Shown here: positions 18,576-25,442 of the stretch, in pieces
Layout of the letters: every line of letters starts with the position of its first letter
How positions within the stretch are numbered: position 1 is the stretch's first letter
IMG/VR virus record: IMGVR_UViG_3300042934_000658
Direction: 5' to 3' (one strand)
DNA: 35,247 nt
Source: a virus
Notes under the pieces: generated by a model
Seen by the model: only the letters and a program-made list of their open reading frames with translations
What the model was told of the DNA's origin: nothing
Databases searched by the model: none
Position numbers and translations under genes: made by a program

Positions 18576-18592
18576 ATCTACTTAAAGTAGAC
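18576..18592. promoter_or_regulatory. Distal operator-like palindrome ATCTAC-TTAAA-GTAGAc
   Basis: It has the same half-sites and the same 5-bp spacer length as the operator inside the early promoter. It lies between the cro-like and xis-like genes. Confidence 0.55.
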
Positions 18593-18798
18593 TATACGAT
18601 AAACGAAATGTTATCCACCTCTATCTTGACCAAAGATGCAAATTCATGCGCTTTTTTCAATGGCATATCACTTGCATCCTTCTCCCACTTCCCAACGGTT
18701 TGCCTATGAACACCAAGAGTATTAGCAACATCTTGCTGAGATAACTCGCTGAGCGCCCTTGCCTGTCTCATCGTTATTTTCTTTGTCTTATCCTGCAT
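18592..18798 (-). CDS. Cro-like XRE HTH protein (first early gene)
   Basis: The ATG at 18798 follows AAAGGAGGT. The product contains ...LSELSQQDVANTLGVHRQTVGKWEKD. Confidence 0.75.
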   Translation of the reverse strand: MQDKTKKITMRQARALSELSQQDVANTLGVHRQTVGKWEKDASDMPLKKAHEFASLVKIEVDNISFIV

Positions 18799-18828
18799 CA
18801 GGTTACCTCCTTTCATGATTGCAACCCC

Positions 18829-18857
18829 ATATTAATCTACCAAAAGTAGATTGTCAA
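18829..18857 (-). promoter_or_regulatory. Early lytic promoter TTGACA-17-TAATAT whose spacer is the 17-bp palindromic operator ATCTACTTTTGGTAGAT
   Basis: The -35 is at 18852..18857, the -10 at 18829..18834, and the palindrome at 18835..18851. Confidence 0.65.
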
Positions 18858-18888
18858 CACCAAAACGGTATTTTTATCTACCAAAAGG

Positions 18889-18917
18889 TTGATTTATATC
18901 TACATGTCGTTTATAAT
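18889..18917 (+). promoter_or_regulatory. Repressor/lysogeny promoter TTGATT-17-TATAAT with ATCTAC half-sites in and upstream of it
   Basis: The -35 is at 18889..18894 and the -10 at 18912..18917. atctac occurs at 18898..18903 and atctaccaaaag at 18876..18887. Confidence 0.55.
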
Positions 18918-18958
18918 CGACACAAGAACAAAAAAAGATTGCGAGGTAAGTATAAGAG

Positions 18959-19297
18959 ATGATGGATAACGAATTTGGTATCTCTGATAATTTGAAGATT
19001 TTAAGAAAACGCTATGGCCTAACACAACAGGAACTGGCTGAAATTGCTGGAGTTACTAATAAAGCGGTATCCGCTTGGGAAAGAGGACAAAAAGAGCCTC
19101 GTATGGGTGCGATTGAGCGTATTTCAAAGCACTTCAATATCAAAAAGAGTAATTTAATTGAACATGGCGGAATGGATATTTTGGGTCCGGACCTTAGTAA
19201 TGCAATTGCTCTCAGCTTTGGCAGTGAGGTTTTTTCAGAAAAAGAAATCGAAGACATCGTAAATTACATCAACTACGTGAAGGCTAAGCGTAATTAA
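18959..19297 (+). CDS. CI-like XRE-family repressor without a recognisable S24 peptidase domain
   Basis: The N-terminal HTH is LRKRYGLTQQELAEIAGVTNKAVSAWERGQKEP. The protein is 112 aa, co-oriented with int and divergent from the cro-like gene. Confidence 0.7.
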   Translation: MMDNEFGISDNLKILRKRYGLTQQELAEIAGVTNKAVSAWERGQKEPRMGAIERISKHFNIKKSNLIEHGGMDILGPDLSNAIALSFGSEVFSEKEIEDIVNYINYVKAKRN

Positions 19298-19383: not shown

Positions 19384-19614
19384 ATGAGAAACTGGGAAAA
19401 GATCGACGATAGTATCTATTGGTTCACTTTTGATTTTTTGAGACAGCCGGACAGACGGCGCATTCGGCAAAGGATGCGAGTGACGTTTGATAGCCCGCCT
19501 ACACCGAGTGAGATAAAAACCAAATATCTGCAGCTTGAGAAGACAGCAAGAGTACAGCAATTGCGTAAGGGGTTGAAAACCGATGCCAAACTGGACGAAA
19601 CGGGGGGAGAATAA
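19384..19614 (+). CDS. Free-standing paralog of the integrase N-terminal arm-type DNA-binding domain
   Basis: The ATG at 19384 follows GGAAGGGGG. MRNWEK...Y...RRIRQ...VTFD aligns without gaps to the Int N-terminus MPNWTK...Y...KRIRQ...ITLD. Confidence 0.5.
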   Translation: MRNWEKIDDSIYWFTFDFLRQPDRRRIRQRMRVTFDSPPTPSEIKTKYLQLEKTARVQQLRKGLKTDAKLDETGGE

Positions 19615-20812
19615 GTACCGGCTTATTGCTGAGCTTGGGTATGACGCCAAAGGCAAGCGTATCCGCCAGACTACAACAATCACACTTGATCATAAACCTA
19701 AAAAGGGAGAACTGGATTTAGCTGCAGCCAGGTTTGAAGAGAGTGTCATTAATGGGGAATGGAAAAAGCGCGGTATTGTCGGATTTGAAGCATTTGTACT
19801 GGGCGACTGGAAGAAGAATTATGCTGAGATTGAAATGGGGGAATACACCTGCTTCAATACTATGAGAATAATTGAAGGCCGACTGATTCCCGAGTTTGGT
19901 CGCTTTCAGCTTGATCAAATAAGTACAATTCACTTGGTTCGGTACTTCACGTCCTTGCGAGCTCCTGACGCCCGTAAGGACAAACGCAAAGGACCTTTGG
20001 CTACAAATACCTTACTTAACATTTACAAAGCTTTAAAATCAATATTTGACGCCGCTCATGAGTGGCAGATAATAACCAAAAATCCGATGGATGGAGTAAA
20101 AAGACCTACTGCTGATAAAATTGAGAAGCGCGCCCTAAAGAAACGCAAACGCTCATACTCTCCAAAAGAGGTGGAACGATTAATTACAGCCCTTTATAAG
20201 GAGCCGGAAAACTGGAAGCTGTACTTTATCGGTGTGTTGGTGGGTGGATATCGTCGAGGCGAATATTTAGCCGTGGAATGGCCAGCTGCGGATTTCCAAA
20301 TGTCTAGAATTTATGTAGAAAGGCAGATCACCTTTGACAGTGATGGGCAAGCCACTGAAGGAGAATTAAAAACACTTGAGTCCGAGGGTTTTGTGCCGAT
20401 GCCTCGCTGGTACATGACTGAGTTGAACGCATTTAGGATGAAAGAAATTAGAGCAAGGTTACGAATGGCACCGAATGACTGGAAAGGAGGCGACAGACAT
20501 TTTATATTTCACTCCGGCCATGGCGAACCTTACTATCCAAACACTCCATCAGCAACATGGAGAAAATTCCTGGATAAGTGCGGGCTTCCAAGAGTGCGCT
20601 TGCACGATCTGCGACACACAACGGCAATGTTGCTGCGTGAGTACGGCGCAGACGTCAGAGCAATTCAAAGTCAGCTACGACATTCGAAATTGGCAACTAC
20701 CACAGACACCTATATGGAACGGGATAATACGTTTATTCCCGAAGGTGACAACTTACTGGAAGTTTTGGACCCAAATCGAATTGATGGACACCAAATGGAC
20801 ACCACAAGTTAA
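19583..20812 (+). CDS. int: Tyrosine integrase
   Basis: The 409-aa product has an arm-binding N-terminus, a core-binding domain and a catalytic region with ...RLHDLRHT... and a C-terminal Y in ATTTDTYMER. Confidence 0.95.
   Translation: MPNWTKRGENKYRLIAELGYDAKGKRIRQTTTITLDHKPKKGELDLAAARFEESVINGEWKKRGIVGFEAFVLGDWKKNYAEIEMGEYTCFNTMRIIEGRLIPEFGRFQLDQISTIHLVRYFTSLRAPDARKDKRKGPLATNTLLNIYKALKSIFDAAHEWQIITKNPMDGVKRPTADKIEKRALKKRKRSYSPKEVERLITALYKEPENWKLYFIGVLVGGYRRGEYLAVEWPAADFQMSRIYVERQITFDSDGQATEGELKTLESEGFVPMPRWYMTELNAFRMKEIRARLRMAPNDWKGGDRHFIFHSGHGEPYYPNTPSATWRKFLDKCGLPRVRLHDLRHTTAMLLREYGADVRAIQSQLRHSKLATTTDTYMERDNTFIPEGDNLLEVLDPNRIDGHQMDTTS
20786..20804 (+). repeat. Pair of GGACACCA motifs 11 bp apart (candidate arm-type sites, P arm)
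   Basis: atGGACACCAaatGGACACCAc lies within the 3' end of int. Confidence 0.5.
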
Positions 20813-20887: not shown

Positions 20888-20935
20888 TGGAGCGGGTGAT
20901 GGGAATCGAACCCACGCTATCAGCTTGGAAGGCTG
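20888..20935 (-). other. attP core: the 3' 48 nt of a tRNA-Gly(UCC)-like gene (anticodon stem to CCA end), not a complete tRNA
   Basis: The minus strand reads CAGCC-TTCCAAG-CTGATAGC-GTGGG-TTCGATT-CCCAT-CACCCGC-T-CCA. No matching 5' acceptor strand or D-arm lies upstream. Confidence 0.8.
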
Positions 20936-21085: not shown

Positions 21086-21355
21086 CTAATTAAAATCGAT
21101 GCCATCTATGTCTTTCCCCAAAGCCAAAGATATACGTTTCGCAAGGTGTGGAGAAATAACTGATGGTCTCTTTTCAATTTTCATTAACCTTTCTTCGGAT
21201 ATTTCTAGCGCAGCAGCCAACTGTTGTGTTGAAATCCCCGCCTTCTCCCTCGCTACAGTAATTGTAGGTATATTACTGATTTCATCACCCAAAACACATA
21301 CTCCCCTTCTATATACTAAAAATAAGAACTTATGTTCCCAATTATAATCGGTCAA
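21086..21355 (-). CDS. XRE-family HTH protein (start uncertain, possibly an internal TTG)
   Basis: The product contains ...TVAREKAGISTQQLAAALEISEERLMKIEKR.... Confidence 0.6.
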   Translation of the reverse strand: MTDYNWEHKFLFLVYRRGVCVLGDEISNIPTITVAREKAGISTQQLAAALEISEERLMKIEKRPSVISPHLAKRISLALGKDIDGIDFN

Positions 21356-21430
21356 TTCCCTTTAAATCAATGTCTATGGTATAATTCGGACGTATCTATT
21401 CACCCTTTCTCAAATTAATAGGAGGGAACA

Positions 21431-21661
21431 ATGAGACTCCGTCAAGGGAGCTGCCTGCTGCCAGATATTCGGAAGTCTCGGGGAAAGACACAAGAGCAGG
21501 TTTGCACTGCTCTTAAGAATGAGTTAGGGGTGGAAATGTCCCCTTCCTACTTCTCCAGGATCGAGAAAGGCATTGCACCTCTGACTCTGCTACAAGCCAG
21601 AGCAATATGCATTGTACTGGCTTGTACCGAGCAACAACTTTATCACTATACGCAAGACTAG
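21431..21661 (+). CDS. XRE-family HTH protein, divergent from 21086..21355
   Basis: The RBS is TAGGAGGGAAC. The product contains ...SRGKTQEQVCTALKNELGVEMSPSYFSRIEKG.... An upstream extended -10 TGgTATAAT is present. Confidence 0.7.
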   Translation: MRLRQGSCLLPDIRKSRGKTQEQVCTALKNELGVEMSPSYFSRIEKGIAPLTLLQARAICIVLACTEQQLYHYTQD

Positions 21662-21888
21662 GCAGCAGGCTGGAGCATTTATTGCTCCCCCGTGACACAA
21701 AAATGAACTAAGCACGAAATAAAACTTTAAGTCAATACTTTTTCATCGGTTGAATACATTTCTAATTAAACCCCTTTTAAGATAAAATGTATAGTTGAAC
21801 TCGGATTCTAAAATAGGCTTTTCGACACCATAATTCGACAAACAAGTTATCGTTTTTATGGTATATTGTTTAATTAGCAAATAAAAAA

Positions 21889-21910
21889 AGCCACCTATAA
21901 GCCGGAGGCT
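21889..21910. terminator. Bidirectional terminator at the end of the agr-like operon
   Basis: The hairpin agccacc-tataagcc-ggaggct is flanked by an A7 run and a T7 run. Confidence 0.6.
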
Positions 21911-21920
21911 TTTTTTATTA

Positions 21921-22283
21921 TTAAGCATATACAATTGTGTGCGATGCTTTTCTTTTAATTTCTTTTATTCGATCTTCGGCCAATGGACAGTATTTTCCTC
22001 TTCTTTCGGCTGAAAAATAAGCCCGGCAAAAAAACTTGTCCACCAACTGAATTGCATCTACATTAATAACCCCGATCCTATCAGCACGAGCGAAATTGTA
22101 TCCATTAAGCTTAAACAGGTCCAACCAGTAAACCAATGTTCCTACCGTATAATAGGTGTTTAATTCAGTATGCACAATAATTCTTTTTTCAGAGCGAAGA
22201 TATTCAATAAATAAAATTTGATTTATAAGAACAGAGAATAATCCGCTGCCGTCGACTTCTTTTGTCACTGATATTGAGTGCAT
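21921..22283 (-). CDS. LytTR-domain DNA-binding protein lacking a receiver domain
   Basis: The 120-aa product contains ...ILFIEYLRSEKRIIVHT...FARADRIGVINVDAI.... The ATG at 22283 is preceded by GGAGG. Confidence 0.75.
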   Translation of the reverse strand: MHSISVTKEVDGSGLFSVLINQILFIEYLRSEKRIIVHTELNTYYTVGTLVYWLDLFKLNGYNFARADRIGVINVDAIQLVDKFFCRAYFSAERRGKYCPLAEDRIKEIKRKASHTIVYA

Positions 22284-22294
22284 ATAAACCTCCA

Positions 22295-22414
22295 CTACAG
22301 CAATTCTTCTGGAACTTCCCCTTCGTACACATACAGTAAGCTCGCTGTACTAAGCGATCCTACAGCAACAACTGACAATAATGTTGCGAGTAAAGATAGA
22401 GCGCGACGTTTCAT
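22295..22414 (-). CDS. agrD: AgrD-like autoinducing-peptide precursor (39 aa, no cysteine)
   Basis: This ORF is not in the supplied track. Its product is MKRRALSLLATLLSVVAVGSLSTASLLYVYEGEVPEELL. The RBS is GGGAGGTGA, the start lies 3 nt after the agrB stop, and the tail is an acidic EVPEEL like the AgrD EVPKEL. Confidence 0.65.
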   Translation of the reverse strand: MKRRALSLLATLLSVVAVGSLSTASLLYVYEGEVPEELL

Positions 22415-22417
22415 TCT

Positions 22418-22939
22418 TCATTTCACCTCCCTCCATGTAATTAAAGTAAGACCTTGCACCAAAAAGCACAGAGTAAGTGTTGTTGATTGGAAGAAAAAAC
22501 TGCTGGATACAATTAATACAGAAAGAATTTTTAAACCAGGATAGTATCGTCTCGGTATTCGATTTTGCTGTCTAATTCTAGAAGGCGCATATACTATGTA
22601 AAGGATGATGCTAACTACATTGAGTATCTGAATATATTGCAATTCCAGGTGTATCAGAGAAAGTATTGTGAATGTAGTTGTTGTAGCTAAAACACACTTC
22701 ATTCCCGACTTCAGATGAATACCTCCAGAAATTTGTCTTATAGAAGCAAAGACAATCAGTAGAATAATCACTTCCTTTGTCCGGCTGGTTACGAATGATA
22801 CAAGTAATGTTCCAATAATAATGAAAGCCGTATTAAGCATAATGGCGAGTGAATATTTCAGGACAGCTACCGAAGCTTTATGATCGGGAATATTTCGTTT
22901 TATCCCTTCTGCCATTTTTAATGCTAGTGTTTCAATCAT
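22418..22939 (-). CDS. agrB: AgrB-family membrane cysteine endopeptidase
   Basis: The product contains RQISGGIHLKSGMKC, with His and Cys 7 residues apart as in S. aureus AgrB H77/C84. It also has a VYAP motif and multiple TM helices. The ATG at 22939 follows GGGAGAGGGAAG. Confidence 0.85.
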   Translation of the reverse strand: MIETLALKMAEGIKRNIPDHKASVAVLKYSLAIMLNTAFIIIGTLLVSFVTSRTKEVIILLIVFASIRQISGGIHLKSGMKCVLATTTTFTILSLIHLELQYIQILNVVSIILYIVYAPSRIRQQNRIPRRYYPGLKILSVLIVSSSFFFQSTTLTLCFLVQGLTLITWREVK

Positions 22940-23561
22940 CTTCCCTCTCCCTTTTAAAAGAGTAGTACAAGAAAAACATAGAAAGCAGGAAGAAAACAAG
23001 AATATTCATGTAAATTTCTTTGTAGTACAGCAAAACAGATATGCCTAACAAAAAACCAATAATAGTTATTGTAAGCGCTATATCCTCAAACTTAAATCGT
23101 AATTTCTCAAATTCAAAATTAAACCCTTTGCCCATGTGGTAAAGGAAATAGGCTCCGACTATAAGAACAATAGCGCTGATTACCTGCAGCAAATATCCAT
23201 TTACGATACTATTATCTATTGCGCTTATTGATCCAAAAAACAATAACACAATGCAAGTCTGCGTCACAGCAAAAATCACATACCCGGCGATCGTTGCAAG
23301 TAAAGAAAATATCAATGGAAGTTTTACCACAACTGTAAAGAAGATTGTAAATAACATGATACTGATTACCGGCGCAACATTTGCCATAGATAAATCATTT
23401 CTCAGAAGATAACTTTGGAGGTTCATTAGAAGGATGAAAAAAAGCACTTGCCATGCGTACCAACTCCACTTAAACCTAAACAAGCACATTATTAAAAAGT
23501 ACATAGAGAACGCTTCAATAGTTGAAAAAAACATAAAACCTACGGGCTCCCACGACAACAT
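22932..23561 (-). CDS. Polytopic membrane protein (6-8 TM), resembling an AgrC sensor module without a kinase domain or an HdrM/BrsM-type LytTR inhibitor
   Basis: The 209-aa product is almost entirely hydrophobic helices and ends ...FKREREDD right after the last TM. An ATGATTGA overlap couples it to agrB. Confidence 0.65.
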   Translation of the reverse strand: MLSWEPVGFMFFSTIEAFSMYFLIMCLFRFKWSWYAWQVLFFILLMNLQSYLLRNDLSMANVAPVISIMLFTIFFTVVVKLPLIFSLLATIAGYVIFAVTQTCIVLLFFGSISAIDNSIVNGYLLQVISAIVLIVGAYFLYHMGKGFNFEFEKLRFKFEDIALTITIIGFLLGISVLLYYKEIYMNILVFFLLSMFFLYYSFKREREDD

Positions 23562-23670
23562 GCAACACCACCTGACATAATTTTCATTTGACGCAATCAT
23601 TATACCGCCAAAAACCTAAAACCGTATATCAGAATGTGCGACTTTTGCATACTTGAATATTCATGACATA

Positions 23671-23699
23671 AATATATACTCGTACAAGTATATTGTCAA
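23671..23699 (-). promoter_or_regulatory. Promoter of the agr-like operon: TTGACA-17-TATATT
   Basis: The -35 is at 23694..23699 and the -10 at 23671..23676. The 17-nt spacer is one of the two palindromic operators. Confidence 0.55.
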
Positions 23700-23726
23700 T
23701 AAATATTTAATACTTGTACGAGTATA
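23675..23726. promoter_or_regulatory. Two copies of an 18-bp near-palindrome TATACT-N6-AGTATA, which together form a perfect 17-bp inverted repeat
   Basis: tatactcgtacaagtat (23675..23691) is the exact reverse complement of atacttgtacgagtata (23710..23726). One copy lies in each of the two divergent promoters. Confidence 0.8.
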
Positions 23727-23753: not shown

Positions 23754-23975
23754 ATGGTGAGCATATTGGAGGAATCTAAAAGAAGCCCAGCATCACGGGC
23801 AAAGATGAAATACAACGCCAAAAACTATGAACGAATCCCCTTAGATGTCAAAATAGGCACCAAAGCAATCTATAAGGCTGCAGCTGCGGCAGAGAATCTA
23901 AGTCTAAATGCTTTTATCCAGAAGGCCATAGAAGAAAAAATGGATCGAAAATCAAAGGAAACCCCGCCAGCATAA
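23754..23975 (+). CDS. Ribbon-helix-helix (CopG/Arc/HicB-C-like) DNA-binding protein
   Basis: The product contains ...IPLDVKIGTKAIYKAAAAAENLSLNAFIQKAIEEKM. The start codon is uncertain. Confidence 0.55.
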   Translation: MVSILEESKRSPASRAKMKYNAKNYERIPLDVKIGTKAIYKAAAAAENLSLNAFIQKAIEEKMDRKSKETPPA

Positions 23976-24083: not shown

Positions 24084-24100
24084 CAAACGCTTGGGAATTT
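24084..24100. repeat. 17-mer caaacgcttgggaattt, copy 3 (abuts the endolysin stop codon)
   Basis: A perfect match to 8713..8729. Here the hairpin is tcccaa-acgc-ttggga (24081..24096). Confidence 0.85.
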
Positions 24101-24731
24101 ACTTTTTTGCAACGACAAACGTCAACCATGCAAGCTCGGATGTTGTCAGTGTCCTTTTGTCGATCTTATCCAGCCAGGATGTGTCACTGATCGTCTTAGC
24201 GTCCAGGAGCGCCTTAACTCCTGCGCGGAGTGTTGTCCATTGATAGTTTGACAGTTCCAATTCTTCGTCCTCCTTGATGGCCTCAACGGCCTTATTATAT
24301 AGCTCCAACTCCGCCATGCGGCGGCGGACCAGCCCGGGCAACACATTGCCGCCGCCCTTGTTGTACTTGGTGATGTTATCGGCAATCTGCGCAATTGTGC
24401 GGCCCTTACAAAGCTGCTGCAGACTACCATTGCCGCAGTTATAGGTAAAGCTTACAAGAGCATCAAACTGGTTTTGATTGAGTTGCGCTGTCACCGGTAC
24501 ATAAGACGGGCTGTTAACGTATCCCTCATACTTGGCGAGATCCGTCACCAGCATGCTATCAGCCTGGGCCTGTGAGATAGTCATGCCCTCGTTAACATTA
24601 GGGCCATAGTGGCCCCAGCCAATTGTCCAATATTGCTCTGTCGGCACTGGCTTGTATGCCTTGAGGCGGCATCCTTCATAATTTTTAATCAGCTTGATGC
24701 CCGTTCCTGATATTTTACGACTCATTTCCAT
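24099..24731 (-). CDS. Endolysin: GH24 lysozyme domain plus a C-terminal putative wall-binding region
   Basis: The product contains ...IKNYEGCRLKAYKPVPTEQYWTIGWGHYG...FDALVSFTYNCG.... Confidence 0.9.
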   Translation of the reverse strand: MEMSRKISGTGIKLIKNYEGCRLKAYKPVPTEQYWTIGWGHYGPNVNEGMTISQAQADSMLVTDLAKYEGYVNSPSYVPVTAQLNQNQFDALVSFTYNCGNGSLQQLCKGRTIAQIADNITKYNKGGGNVLPGLVRRRMAELELYNKAVEAIKEDEELELSNYQWTTLRAGVKALLDAKTISDTSWLDKIDKRTLTTSELAWLTFVVAKK

Positions 24732-24736
24732 TCCCC

Positions 24737-25246
24737 CTATGCAGATTGGTCATTGTCTGGATGCTCCGGCTTAGCTGGATTGTTCTTGCTCTTGTCCTCG
24801 CTCAGCTGTAGTAAATAATCCTTGAGCTTGTCCGGAAGAGGTACGCCGATAACTCCGAAATTTTCCACAACTGAAAGCGCCTCGCGGCCAGCATAAAATA
24901 GTATGGCAGCCATCCGAAATATTGGAGCACCTGGCTGAACCCATTCATCTACCAAGGCCGCTAGTCCGACTACAAAGAGCACGGTCACTTTGCGAATCCC
25001 GCCCCAGAACATAATGTCACTACTGACTGTCTTGGTCTTAAACGCTCCTGCTACACCGCTGGCATAGTCAGCCAGCATGAGAACTATGAGAAGTTCAAGT
25101 GGTTTGTCATATCCACCCAACCAACCTGCAGCCATAGCAAGCAATCCAGTAATTGAGGCTACGCCTCCTACTGCTATTTCTCGACTTCCAGATCCGATAG
25201 CTGCCGTGAATACCGTTGTTACAATATGTCTGATTTGATTAATCAT
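24737..25246 (-). CDS. Holin (phage_holin_4-like, multi-TM)
   Basis: The ATG at 25246 follows AAGGAGG. Several TM helices are present, and the gene lies immediately upstream of the endolysin. Confidence 0.7.
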   Translation of the reverse strand: MINQIRHIVTTVFTAAIGSGSREIAVGGVASITGLLAMAAGWLGGYDKPLELLIVLMLADYASGVAGAFKTKTVSSDIMFWGGIRKVTVLFVVGLAALVDEWVQPGAPIFRMAAILFYAGREALSVVENFGVIGVPLPDKLKDYLLQLSEDKSKNNPAKPEHPDNDQSA

Positions 25247-25442
25247 GTTGTTCCTCCTTATTTCTGTCTTCATCACTTTGTTCTGGCATAAGAATATTCA
25301 GCCGTTCATCCAGTGCAGCGCGGATTCCCTCAAGGAACTTTACTTCTTGACCAGGGAAGAATGTGCCGACAGCCGATATTACCGCGCATACCTCACTTAC
25401 AGTAGGCTCGATTTCAATTACCAGTTTGTTTTGTACTCTCAT
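25239..25442 (-). CDS. Hypothetical small protein
   Basis: The ATG at 25442 follows GAAAGGA, and the ORF overlaps the holin start by 8 nt. Confidence 0.45.
   Translation of the reverse strand: MRVQNKLVIEIEPTVSEVCAVISAVGTFFPGQEVKFLEGIRAALDERLNILMPEQSDEDRNKEEQHD

Follow-up and report, generated by a model that had tools for sequence, protein, structure and literature searches.

The DNA analysed here is a stretch of 35,247 nucleotides from the virus record IMGVR_UViG_3300042934_000658 (below, "the window" always means this whole stretch). We found that it carries an operon in which the peptide-synthesis genes of an accessory gene regulator (agr) system, agrB and agrD, lie between a gene for a transmembrane (TM) protein and a gene for a regulator made of a LytTR domain only. 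The description that suits this cassette best is that of an AgrBD peptide factory coupled to a membrane-protein/LytTR pair like those of the LytTR regulatory systems (LRS) of streptococci. It works like both agr and LRS and is a member of neither, since the domain compositions of AgrC and AgrA were not found and its membrane protein matched no LRS membrane-protein family. The interpretation that we favour, tentatively and with somewhat less than even confidence, is that of a self-contained, kinase-less agr-type cassette in which the seven-TM protein would sense a lactone peptide and gate the LytTR protein by direct contact; we infer both the direct TM–LytTR interaction and the dependence on peptide.

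The cassette lies in a low-GC island (0.36 against 0.50) between lysis genes (24099..25276, minus strand) and the integrase gene (19583..20812). The minus strand of the island forms a single operon, 23561..21921, with the following features, in order of transcription:

22932..23561, minus strand: TM gene, 209 amino acids (aa); open reading frame 22932..23600; seven TM helices, N-out/C-in; its stop overlaps the agrB start (ATGA)
22418..22939, minus strand: agrB, 173 aa, AgrD-processing membrane peptidase (PF04647, E 1e-20)
22295..22414, minus strand: agrD, 39 aa, autoinducing-peptide precursor (TIGR04223, E 5e-9)
21921..22283, minus strand: LytTR-only gene, 120 aa (PF04397, E 3e-7)
21880..21919, no strand assigned: bidirectional intrinsic terminator, a GC-rich hairpin between A and T runs (inverted-repeat and terminator scan)

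The strong hairpin at 21880..21919 closes the operon. Co-transcription of the membrane protein with its regulator, a trait of LRS, is indicated by the single strand, the overlapping or closely spaced genes and the single terminator after the LytTR gene.

The regulator and the absence of phosphorelay domains

The sole Pfam match of the LytTR protein is PF04397, over residues 15–112, and as the domain fills the 120-aa length there is no room for a receiver domain. The same was seen in the family, where 33 of 34 representative regulators match PF04397 only and none matches Response_reg. Although the nearest solved relative of the protein is the LytTR DNA-binding domain of AgrA (3BS1, E 2e-5), AgrA joins a receiver to this domain, and the 120-aa protein has the LytTR part only. 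Likewise, the architecture of AgrC, a sensor fused to an HPK10 kinase core (HATPase_c_5), does not occur in the window. We also translated the window in six frames and searched every stretch of 40 aa or more with phmmer and hmmsearch; the queries were AgrC, kinases of the HisKA_3 and His_kinase types, and two response regulators. Neither a kinase nor a receiver was found, and the lone weak hit is a DUF3102 protein by Pfam. With neither a DHp/ATPase core nor a receiver domain in the cassette, phosphotransfer is impossible.

The original prediction, a reading of the letters and open reading frames without database searches, had described the first gene as a TM-only protein of about 209 aa without DHp or ATPase domain, the last as a 120-aa LytTR protein without receiver, and the window as free of histidine kinases. 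The first two descriptions agree with the profile searches and with the coordinates listed above, and the kinase that a profile search might still have revealed was not found in the window.

We also noted that the LytTR-only family has one invariant Cys, Cys99 in the window protein, which in the PDB alignment pairs with the Cys of the AgrA C-terminal ...EHCYAS. We take the AgrA residue to be Cys228, part of its redox-sensitive disulfide, and a redox input to the LytTR protein is possible. Two variants of the regulator were observed. In Cohnella nanjingensis (locus L089, 6304..7026) it is a 240-aa tandem LytTR-LytTR fusion, again without receiver, an arrangement that would suit a LytTR dimer bound to repeated sites; in this locus the TM gene overlaps, at its start, with a small HTH_17/Cox-like gene. 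In three other loci a second short LytTR-only paralogue lies a few hundred bases downstream of the first (L025, 7953..8327; L038, 8224..8640; L063, 11333..11797).

The membrane protein founds an unannotated family

The TM gene starts at 23561 (MLSWEP..., the protein ending in FKREREDD), a start backed by an AGGTGG ribosome-binding site and supported by the N-termini of 40 homologues, which begin MSWEP. AlphaFold2, run on a 41-sequence family alignment, gave seven helices (pLDDT 75, pTM 0.70). Among 63 family members the K+R counts are 2.1, 1.0, 4.7 and 3.0 for loops 1, 3, 5 and the C-terminal tail, and 0–0.2 for the N-terminus and loops 2, 4 and 6, a distribution that indicates an N-out/C-in topology. 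The last TM helix of the protein ends 7 residues before the C-terminus.

No match to the TM protein was obtained in Pfam or NCBIfam at E≤1, including the NCBIfam AgrC model, in PADLOC at E≤0.01 or in a PDB sequence profile search, and ten distant relatives were equally without a Pfam match at E≤1. A word-indexed search returned 61 relatives of 183–218 aa each, all from Paenibacillus. An exhaustive profile search of 1.84 billion representatives returned 474 clusters, defined at 50% identity, at E≤1e-3 (244 of them at E≤1e-10), with members in Paenibacillus, Cohnella, Thermobacillus and one Neobacillus, every one annotated as hypothetical. The TM protein therefore founds an unannotated family; it is the candidate peptide sensor of the cassette and its candidate anti-regulator. 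The best 150 of the 474 clusters are 200–250 aa or shorter fragments, and none of these 150 is kinase-sized or kinase-fused; kinase-fused relatives may occur among the weaker matches. We considered whether the TM and LytTR proteins are truncated AgrC/AgrA pseudogenes, and this was ruled out by the uniform family lengths, the lack of long relatives among the best 150 and ratios of nonsynonymous to synonymous substitution rates (dN/dS) of 0.04–0.15.

Conservation in the family falls on both faces of the membrane. Polar residues are conserved at the outer ends of TM1, 2, 4 and 5 (E16, N47, Q49, S50, R54, E56, Q101 and Q126), and the best-conserved segment is the basic cytoplasmic loop 5 (residues 143–160, GKGFNFEFEKLRFKFED; G146, F147, K157 and E159), with the motif GxGFxF[DE]x[EK]LRFK[FW]E, together with YY..KE in the C-tail. 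This arrangement fits a transmembrane transducer.

The cassette in chromosomes and in phages

All our synteny statistics are anchored on the TM protein. On this basis, the order TM-AgrB-AgrD-LytTR was found in most of about 90 independently fetched loci, including most of the 50 genome and 31 IMG/VR loci. A scan of 87 loci with hidden Markov models (HMMs) gave 81 hits for an AgrB adjoining the TM gene and a short LytTR protein in 68 loci. The cassette also occurs in Thermobacillus, in Cohnella and in two of three remote members of the TM family. Among these sites are ones that are plainly chromosomal rather than phage-borne and have no adjacent kinase, for example between a comM-like gene and marR/sucCD/dprA/topA, with regulators of 122–139 aa. 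The chromosomal cassette therefore looks self-contained and is not a phage-specific truncation, and the absence of phosphorelay domains is the conserved native state of the whole family.

The 31 IMG/VR contigs carry the cassette usually close to the contig end and to lysis genes or the integrase. When we compared the window with one such phage contig (L056), the sole block of nucleotide homology was 21418..23588 (82% identity), which comprises the cassette and a convergent gene of the XRE type; a single shared block indicates that the module moves between otherwise unrelated phages. Searches of GenBank phages at the DNA level with the operon, and by tblastn with the TM or LytTR protein, found nothing, and a search with AgrB reached four isolated phages: Davies and Abouo of Brevibacillus laterosporus, and Harrison and Paisley of P. 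larvae. In all four, agrB is preceded by a member of the TM family (HMM E 1e-15 to 1e-17), and Davies has two tandem paralogues (gp44 and gp45; L090, 2104..3508). After the small-peptide gene comes one for a LytTR-only protein (about 120 aa), whose annotation is either hypothetical or "dipeptidyl aminopeptidase". An example is Harrison gp41 (L091, 4148..4504), which scores 29 bits with Pfam LytTR and is annotated "dipeptidyl aminopeptidase/acylaminoacyl-peptidase"; the assignment of Davies gp48 is weaker (17 bits, hhalign 54%).

The GC content of the module is below that of its flanks in 10 of 10 contexts (the window and L001, L005, L033, L039, L056, L087, L089, L090 and L091). The gap is 4–15 points in eight of them, including hosts whose flanks have 62–67% GC, and 1–2 points in L039 and L090. 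As the drop is present in every context, low GC seems intrinsic to the module and not solely a sign of recent transfer. The best explanation for this distribution is that the cassette is native to Paenibacillaceae chromosomes and has repeatedly been carried by their temperate phages beside the integrase/att end.

These data bear directly on the alternative that had been offered in the original prediction, namely that the phage proteins plug into the AgrC/AgrA of the host. The TM protein would then be a peptide sink or AgrC decoy, and the LytTR protein a dominant-negative form or a competitor at AgrA sites. It can be said for this idea that AgrA is the nearest solved relative of the LytTR protein, that Paenibacillus has a canonical agr with Cys-containing peptides (PMC12180512), and that phage phiCDHM1 was proposed to use the host regulator (PMC3901668). 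However, the identical kinase-less cassette, with no kinase beside it, is conserved in the chromosomes of several genera, which makes the host-directed role less likely; the cassette has its own conserved promoter element and encodes its own, distinct peptide of the Ser type; and no homology to AgrC sensors was found with hhalign, the comparison being with staphylococcal sensors. We therefore regard parasitism of the host pair as very improbable.

Selection after the loss of agrB and in loci without LytTR

A single deletion, common to loci L017 and L022, took out agrB and nearly all of agrD except its last ~20 nt. The two loci have since diverged to a synonymous distance (dS) of ~1.2, with a dN/dS of 0.08 for the TM gene and 0.10 for the LytTR gene. 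In a further pair without agrB (L019 and L020), the values are 0.14 and 0.04, respectively. Both genes were thus kept under purifying selection after the loss of agrB, which indicates a joint function independent of cis-encoded peptide synthesis. This persistence argues for a TM–LytTR sensing pair, and it fits the sensor/regulator pairing of the original prediction. Between the window and L056, dN/dS is 0.04 for the TM gene, 0.12 for agrB and 0.15 for the LytTR gene; by this sequence measure the phage copies of the cassette are functional, with all four genes under purifying selection.

Loss in the other direction was also observed. In 11 loci of the P. polymyxa and P. lautus groups, TM-AgrB-AgrD stands without an adjacent LytTR gene, and the TM gene is nevertheless constrained (dN/dS 0.06–0.09). 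A cis-encoded LytTR is therefore not strictly needed, which is a caveat to a strict TM–LytTR model, and the TM protein thus appears to be the constant hub of the system. Several of the LytTR-less species carry a complete prophage-type cassette elsewhere, as with L033 and L049 in one genome.

The selection data suit equally well a reading in which the TM and LytTR proteins are an LRS-type pair that senses another cue, such as membrane or metabolic stress, with agrBD as cargo and the peptide as an outgoing signal for some other receptor, in the host or in neighbouring cells. In line with this, the known LRS signals are other than peptides of their own operon, BrsRM being tied to purine metabolism (PMC6193735), phage phiCDHM1 shows that incomplete agr sets can be phage-borne (PMC3901668), and co-variation between the outer loop of the TM protein and the peptide ring was not seen. 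Nevertheless, the TM family is tied to agrB almost everywhere, in the 87 scanned loci as in Thermobacillus, Cohnella, two of three remote members and the four isolated phages, and the TM stop overlaps the agrB start. Moreover, a 36-kb phage would bear a signal factory without its own reader, and the loci that retain the TM protein with AgrBD and have no LytTR are hard to explain if LytTR were its sole partner. We consider a cue other than the peptide unlikely.

The LytTR-less loci, with their TM gene under selection, are in turn what would be expected if the TM protein assisted peptide production (by a second round of processing, export or self-immunity, in a role like that of S. aureus MroQ or SpsB), with LytTR controlled otherwise or constitutive. 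The TM gene is also translationally coupled to agrB, by overlaps of 4–8 nt, and maturation of the S. aureus autoinducing peptide requires a second membrane protease (PMC9388083). Against such a role stands the strong purifying selection on the TM gene in lineages that lost agrB long ago, and the best-conserved segment is a basic cytoplasmic loop, not a catalytic-looking site. We examined a CPBP/MroQ-type protease as a specific candidate. Proteases of this type carry the motifs EExxxR, FxxxH and HxxxN/D. The TM protein gave no PF02517 match and no peptidase or transporter family in Pfam at E≤1, and no His is invariant or nearly so across its family, so that these motifs cannot be present. A dedicated role in peptide production is, in our view, distinctly unlikely.

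AgrB, AgrD and the predicted peptide

AgrB and AgrD are bona fide members of their families. AgrB scores 74 bits with PF04647 (cut-off 23) and has a His and a Cys 7 residues apart (GGIHLKSGMKC), presumably the same spacing as in the catalytic pair of S. aureus AgrB. AgrD scores 36 bits with TIGR04223 (cut-off 19), and its sequence is MKRRALSLLATLLSVVAVGSLSTASLLYV|YEGEVPEELL, where the bar marks the AgrB cleavage site that we assume from the register with S. aureus AgrD, four residues before V/T-P. All 66 of 66 AgrD homologues share the pattern ...[TPVA]-A-S-x-x-[FYW]-[IV] followed by [YNH]-x-x-[ED]-x-P-[EK]-E-L-L, with an invariant Ser at ring position 1. As AgrD has no Cys and this Ser is invariant, the product should be a lactone, and the peptide of the window is predicted to be the five-residue ring S-L-L-Y-V. 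Ser-lactone rings occur in the S. intermedius peptide and in Enterococcus GBAP, whereas the usual agr ring is a Cys thiolactone. The canonical autoinducing peptide of P. polymyxa, ICFGLF, contains Cys and comes from a different locus (PMC12180512). In phages Harrison and Davies the small peptides are KVSIGNPVAPKELRK and KVFLGSQPLPKELKR; the P-K-E-L tail is kept and the ring region differs.

Promoters of the cassette

The region upstream of the TM gene contains the following features:

23599..23631, minus strand: conserved cassette promoter core; TATACG at 23628..23623, an 18-nt spacer and TATAAT at 23604..23599, followed by the conserved 5' untranslated region AATGAAAATTATGTCAGGTGGTG
23671..23699, minus strand: distal strong sigma-70-type promoter, TTGACA-17-TATATT, 11 of 12 consensus matches; the best consensus match in the region
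23675..23726, no strand assigned: perfect 17-nt inverted repeat, TATACTCGTACAAGTAT / ATACTTGTACGAGTATA, with 18 nt between the arms; overlaps the distal promoter
23754..23975, plus strand: divergent 73-aa gene with weak Pfam/NCBIfam matches to ribbon-helix-helix/HicB-like proteins

In 23 distinct LytTR-bearing loci we found a family promoter of the form GTAAATAAGTAG-TATACG-N18-TATAAT, with the conserved 5' untranslated region and no recognisable -35. In our sample this type is confined to loci that bear LytTR (23 of 23 distinct upstream regions); the LytTR-less loci of the P. polymyxa group have an ordinary TTGAAA-17-TATATT promoter instead. TATACG at the place of the -35 hexamer suggests an activator-dependent promoter, and the pattern fits a LytTR protein that would activate its own operon, as in LRS (PMC6193735). 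The element GTAAATAAGTAGTATACG overlaps the -35 position in the 23 loci and contains short repeats, seen by eye, with an 11–12-bp period. When AAGTAGTATACG and TGATATACGG were searched elsewhere in the phage as LytTR targets, chance-level matches inside coding regions were the only ones returned.

The window departs from this family pattern. It lacks the upstream (distal) half of the family element, GTAAATAAGTAG, and it has, ~70 bp upstream of the core, the distal promoter that the original prediction had located, which is particular to this phage and is absent from the related cassette in L056. The 17-nt inverted repeat is likely to be an operator shared with the divergent gene, and the 73-aa product of that gene is a candidate for the regulator that binds it and controls the distal promoter. 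Given the missing upstream half and a separate strong promoter with a palindromic operator, autoinduction may be rewired in the window phage, and with the promoter embedded in this operator, expression there may be phage-controlled rather than purely autoinduced. The phage-specific promoter and operator, together with the pairing with an XRE regulator described below, suggest that the output is probably tied to prophage or lysogen behaviour, a link that is speculative.

As a side observation, L028 and L062 contain, 1.2 kb upstream of their cassette, a stretch homologous (68%) to the 73-aa gene and to the intergenic DNA next to it, as far as roughly the proximal arm of the repeat; the L028/L062 prophage also shares its holin with the window phage.

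Relation to known systems

With staphylococcal agr the cassette shares the AgrB peptidase, an AgrD with amphipathic leader, 5-residue ring region and acidic xxP-E-E-L tail, and an output regulator whose LytTR fold is nearest to AgrA. The AgrC sensor module is multi-TM and about 200 aa long, and with it the TM protein shares form only: a polytopic protein of 6–7 TM helices and ~200 aa with a cytoplasmic C-terminus. It differs from agr in having no kinase core or receiver, in a TM protein without detectable AgrC homology, in gene order (TM-B-D-LytTR as against B-D-C-A) and in a ring nucleophile that is Ser where agr usually has Cys.

The likeness to HdrRM and BrsRM that the original prediction had drawn holds only for function and context. 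As in these LRS, a LytTR regulator without receiver shares its transcript with a multi-pass membrane protein, the promoter of the operon has no good -35 and a conserved upstream element that suggests positive autoregulation, and the two-gene unit persists in some lineages. Zou et al. 2018 (PMC6193735) provide the precedent of a membrane protein that inhibits a receiver-less LytTR regulator, and describe LRS as widespread and almost uncharacterised. In systems of the HdrRM/BrsRM type, inactivating the membrane protein sets off positive feedback. The likeness does not extend to gene order nor, by Pfam, to protein family, and the classic operator repeats are not evident. The membrane gene comes first in the cassette, with agrBD between it and the regulator gene, whereas the S. 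mutans type is regulator-first and membrane-first order is known only from Bacteroides "LRS-like" operons. In addition, the cassette holds its own candidate ligand factory, which described LRS do not.

Temperate phages with agr peptide-synthesis genes are known (phiCDHM1; Davies, Emery and Abouo), and they share with the window low-GC accessory modules near the lysogeny region. phiCDHM1 carries agrB, agrD and agrC, that is, a kinase and no regulator, whereas in the cassette the regulator is present and the kinase absent. Hargreaves et al. 2014 (PMC3901668) mentioned in passing the kinase-less membrane proteins of phage agr cassettes, and by HMM these belong to the same family as the TM protein of the window. 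The LytTR-only partner was not recognised there, and neither chromosomal conservation nor selection was reported. Our literature search found no description of an agr cassette with TM-only and LytTR-only proteins, of its LytTR partner or of the chromosomal family.

Like arbitrium (AimR/AimP/AimX), the cassette equips a temperate phage with its own secreted peptide and a dedicated non-kinase receptor/regulator near the lysogeny module. The two are not homologous. The arbitrium peptide is linear, imported and bound by a cytoplasmic TPR receptor, whereas in the window we predict a cyclic peptide and sensing at the membrane, and for the cassette the link to lysis–lysogeny is speculative.

A proposed mechanism and the points against it

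In the mechanism that we propose for this kinase-less cassette, AgrB would turn AgrD into a secreted cyclic lactone peptide, which the seven-TM protein would bind at its outer face. Binding would alter the hold of the cytoplasmic loop and tail on the LytTR protein, by sequestration and release as in the streptococcal LytTR systems. The freed LytTR would then act at promoters, in most members including its own TATACG-type promoter, so that autoinduction would proceed without phosphotransfer.

Several results weigh against this mechanism. Besides the constraint on the TM gene in LytTR-less loci, the lack of the upstream half of the promoter element in the window and a sample of loci anchored on the TM protein, these concern the proposed receptor and its DNA target. 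Comparison of the TM family with ten staphylococcal AgrC sensor domains by hhalign gave a probability of 0.2%, so that the homology to AgrC sensor modules that had been put forward for checking was not detected; the comparison covers staphylococcal sensors alone, and the S. aureus AgrC query scores 639 bits with the NCBIfam AgrC model and is 100% identical to database protein P0224. Foldseek of the TM model against PDB and BFVD gave no match below E=2. Contrary to the AgrC sensors of the staphylococcal specificity groups, the TM protein is not hypervariable relative to AgrB, and no clear co-variation was found between its outer loop 4 and the peptide ring. With respect to LRS, the TM protein matches no Pfam family at E≤1, which, by Pfam alone, sets it apart from the S. 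mutans LRS proteins; HdrM carries DUF2154 (PMC6193735). Finally, LRS operon promoters have two 9-bp direct repeats, 11–13 bp apart and ~10 bp upstream of the -35 (PMC6193735), and these classic LytTR repeats (9-N12-9) were not evident upstream of the cassette promoters.

A wider scenario, which we think doubtful, extends the mechanism to a phosphorylation-independent branch of agr. Here a new family of seven-TM receptors would read a cyclic lactone peptide and gate the receiver-less LytTR regulator directly, and the cassette, captured beside the integrase together with a small convergent XRE regulator by temperate Paenibacillus and Brevibacillus phages, would steer lysogeny, induction and superinfection according to the density of lysogens or kin phages, as an agr-type counterpart of arbitrium.

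To our knowledge, peptide sensing in Gram-positive bacteria relies on membrane kinases (agr, com, blp) or, after import, on cytoplasmic RRNPP receptors. If our interpretation is true, a membrane receptor that controls LytTR without phosphotransfer would be a third wiring of peptide quorum sensing, and the cassette could supply the first natural ligand for an LRS-type system as well as a possible form of phage communication outside the SPbeta/arbitrium and Vibrio paradigms. The cassette is tractable: it is 1.6 kb long and self-contained, and it occurs both in cultured Paenibacillus and in phage isolates, namely Harrison and Paisley, whose host P. larvae is a honeybee pathogen, and Davies and Abouo, whose host is B. 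laterosporus. There is also a gain for annotation, as a membrane family of several hundred clusters can be named and the LytTR-only proteins of isolated phages no longer need be mislabelled.

The phage genome and the surroundings of the cassette

The window is the genome of a siphovirus-type phage that is temperate and has Paenibacillus as its host group. PHROGs matches include terminase, portal, major head, tape measure and tail proteins, endolysin, replication initiator and integrase. Pfam additionally identified a holin and a Cro-like/CI-like pair at 18592..19297, adjoining the integrase. PADLOC assigned the cassette to no defence system. Directly 3' of the LytTR gene lies a further gene:

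21431..21661, plus strand: convergent XRE-type helix-turn-helix (HTH) gene, 76 aa (Pfam HTH_31/HTH_3)

A convergent XRE gene of 70–90 aa was found at this place in 33 loci, including the window and L056 (11898..12128, minus strand). It accompanies essentially all phage-borne cassettes and is absent from plainly chromosomal loci. Its recurrence and its inclusion in the homology block shared with L056 indicate that the phage form is a five-gene module.

An inverted repeat is conserved in codons 2–9 of the XRE gene (~21434..21458), as GGCACTC-N9-GAGTGCC in one clade and ATCTCCCGTGGGAGAT in another, with some compensatory changes (Leu CTT with Lys AAG, CTC with Glu GAG, TTC with GAA). In the alignment 81% of cells were paired, against 35–59% in slid controls; covariation was modest and RNAalifold made no call. 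The repeat could be an operator or an mRNA hairpin.

Two divergent HTH pairs are present in the phage, one near the integrase (18592..18816, minus strand, and 18959..19297, plus strand) and one near the cassette (21086..21355, minus strand, and 21431..21661, plus strand). The integrase-side pair looks like the main CI/Cro switch. The cassette-side pair has a 75-bp spacer, and its 89-aa member weakly matches PADLOC HTH models (HTH_VI, capH).

ARAGORN identified no tRNA or tmRNA gene in the window, and Rfam gave a single match in the region, to the 18 nt that end tmRNA, at 20899..20916 on the minus strand, just past the integrase gene; it is weak (E 0.04), and its 12 bits lie far below the gathering threshold. 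This match may represent the attP core of an ssrA-integrating phage. Its position between the integrase and the cassette region suggests that attP lies there, which would place the cassette at the end of the prophage opposite the integrase.

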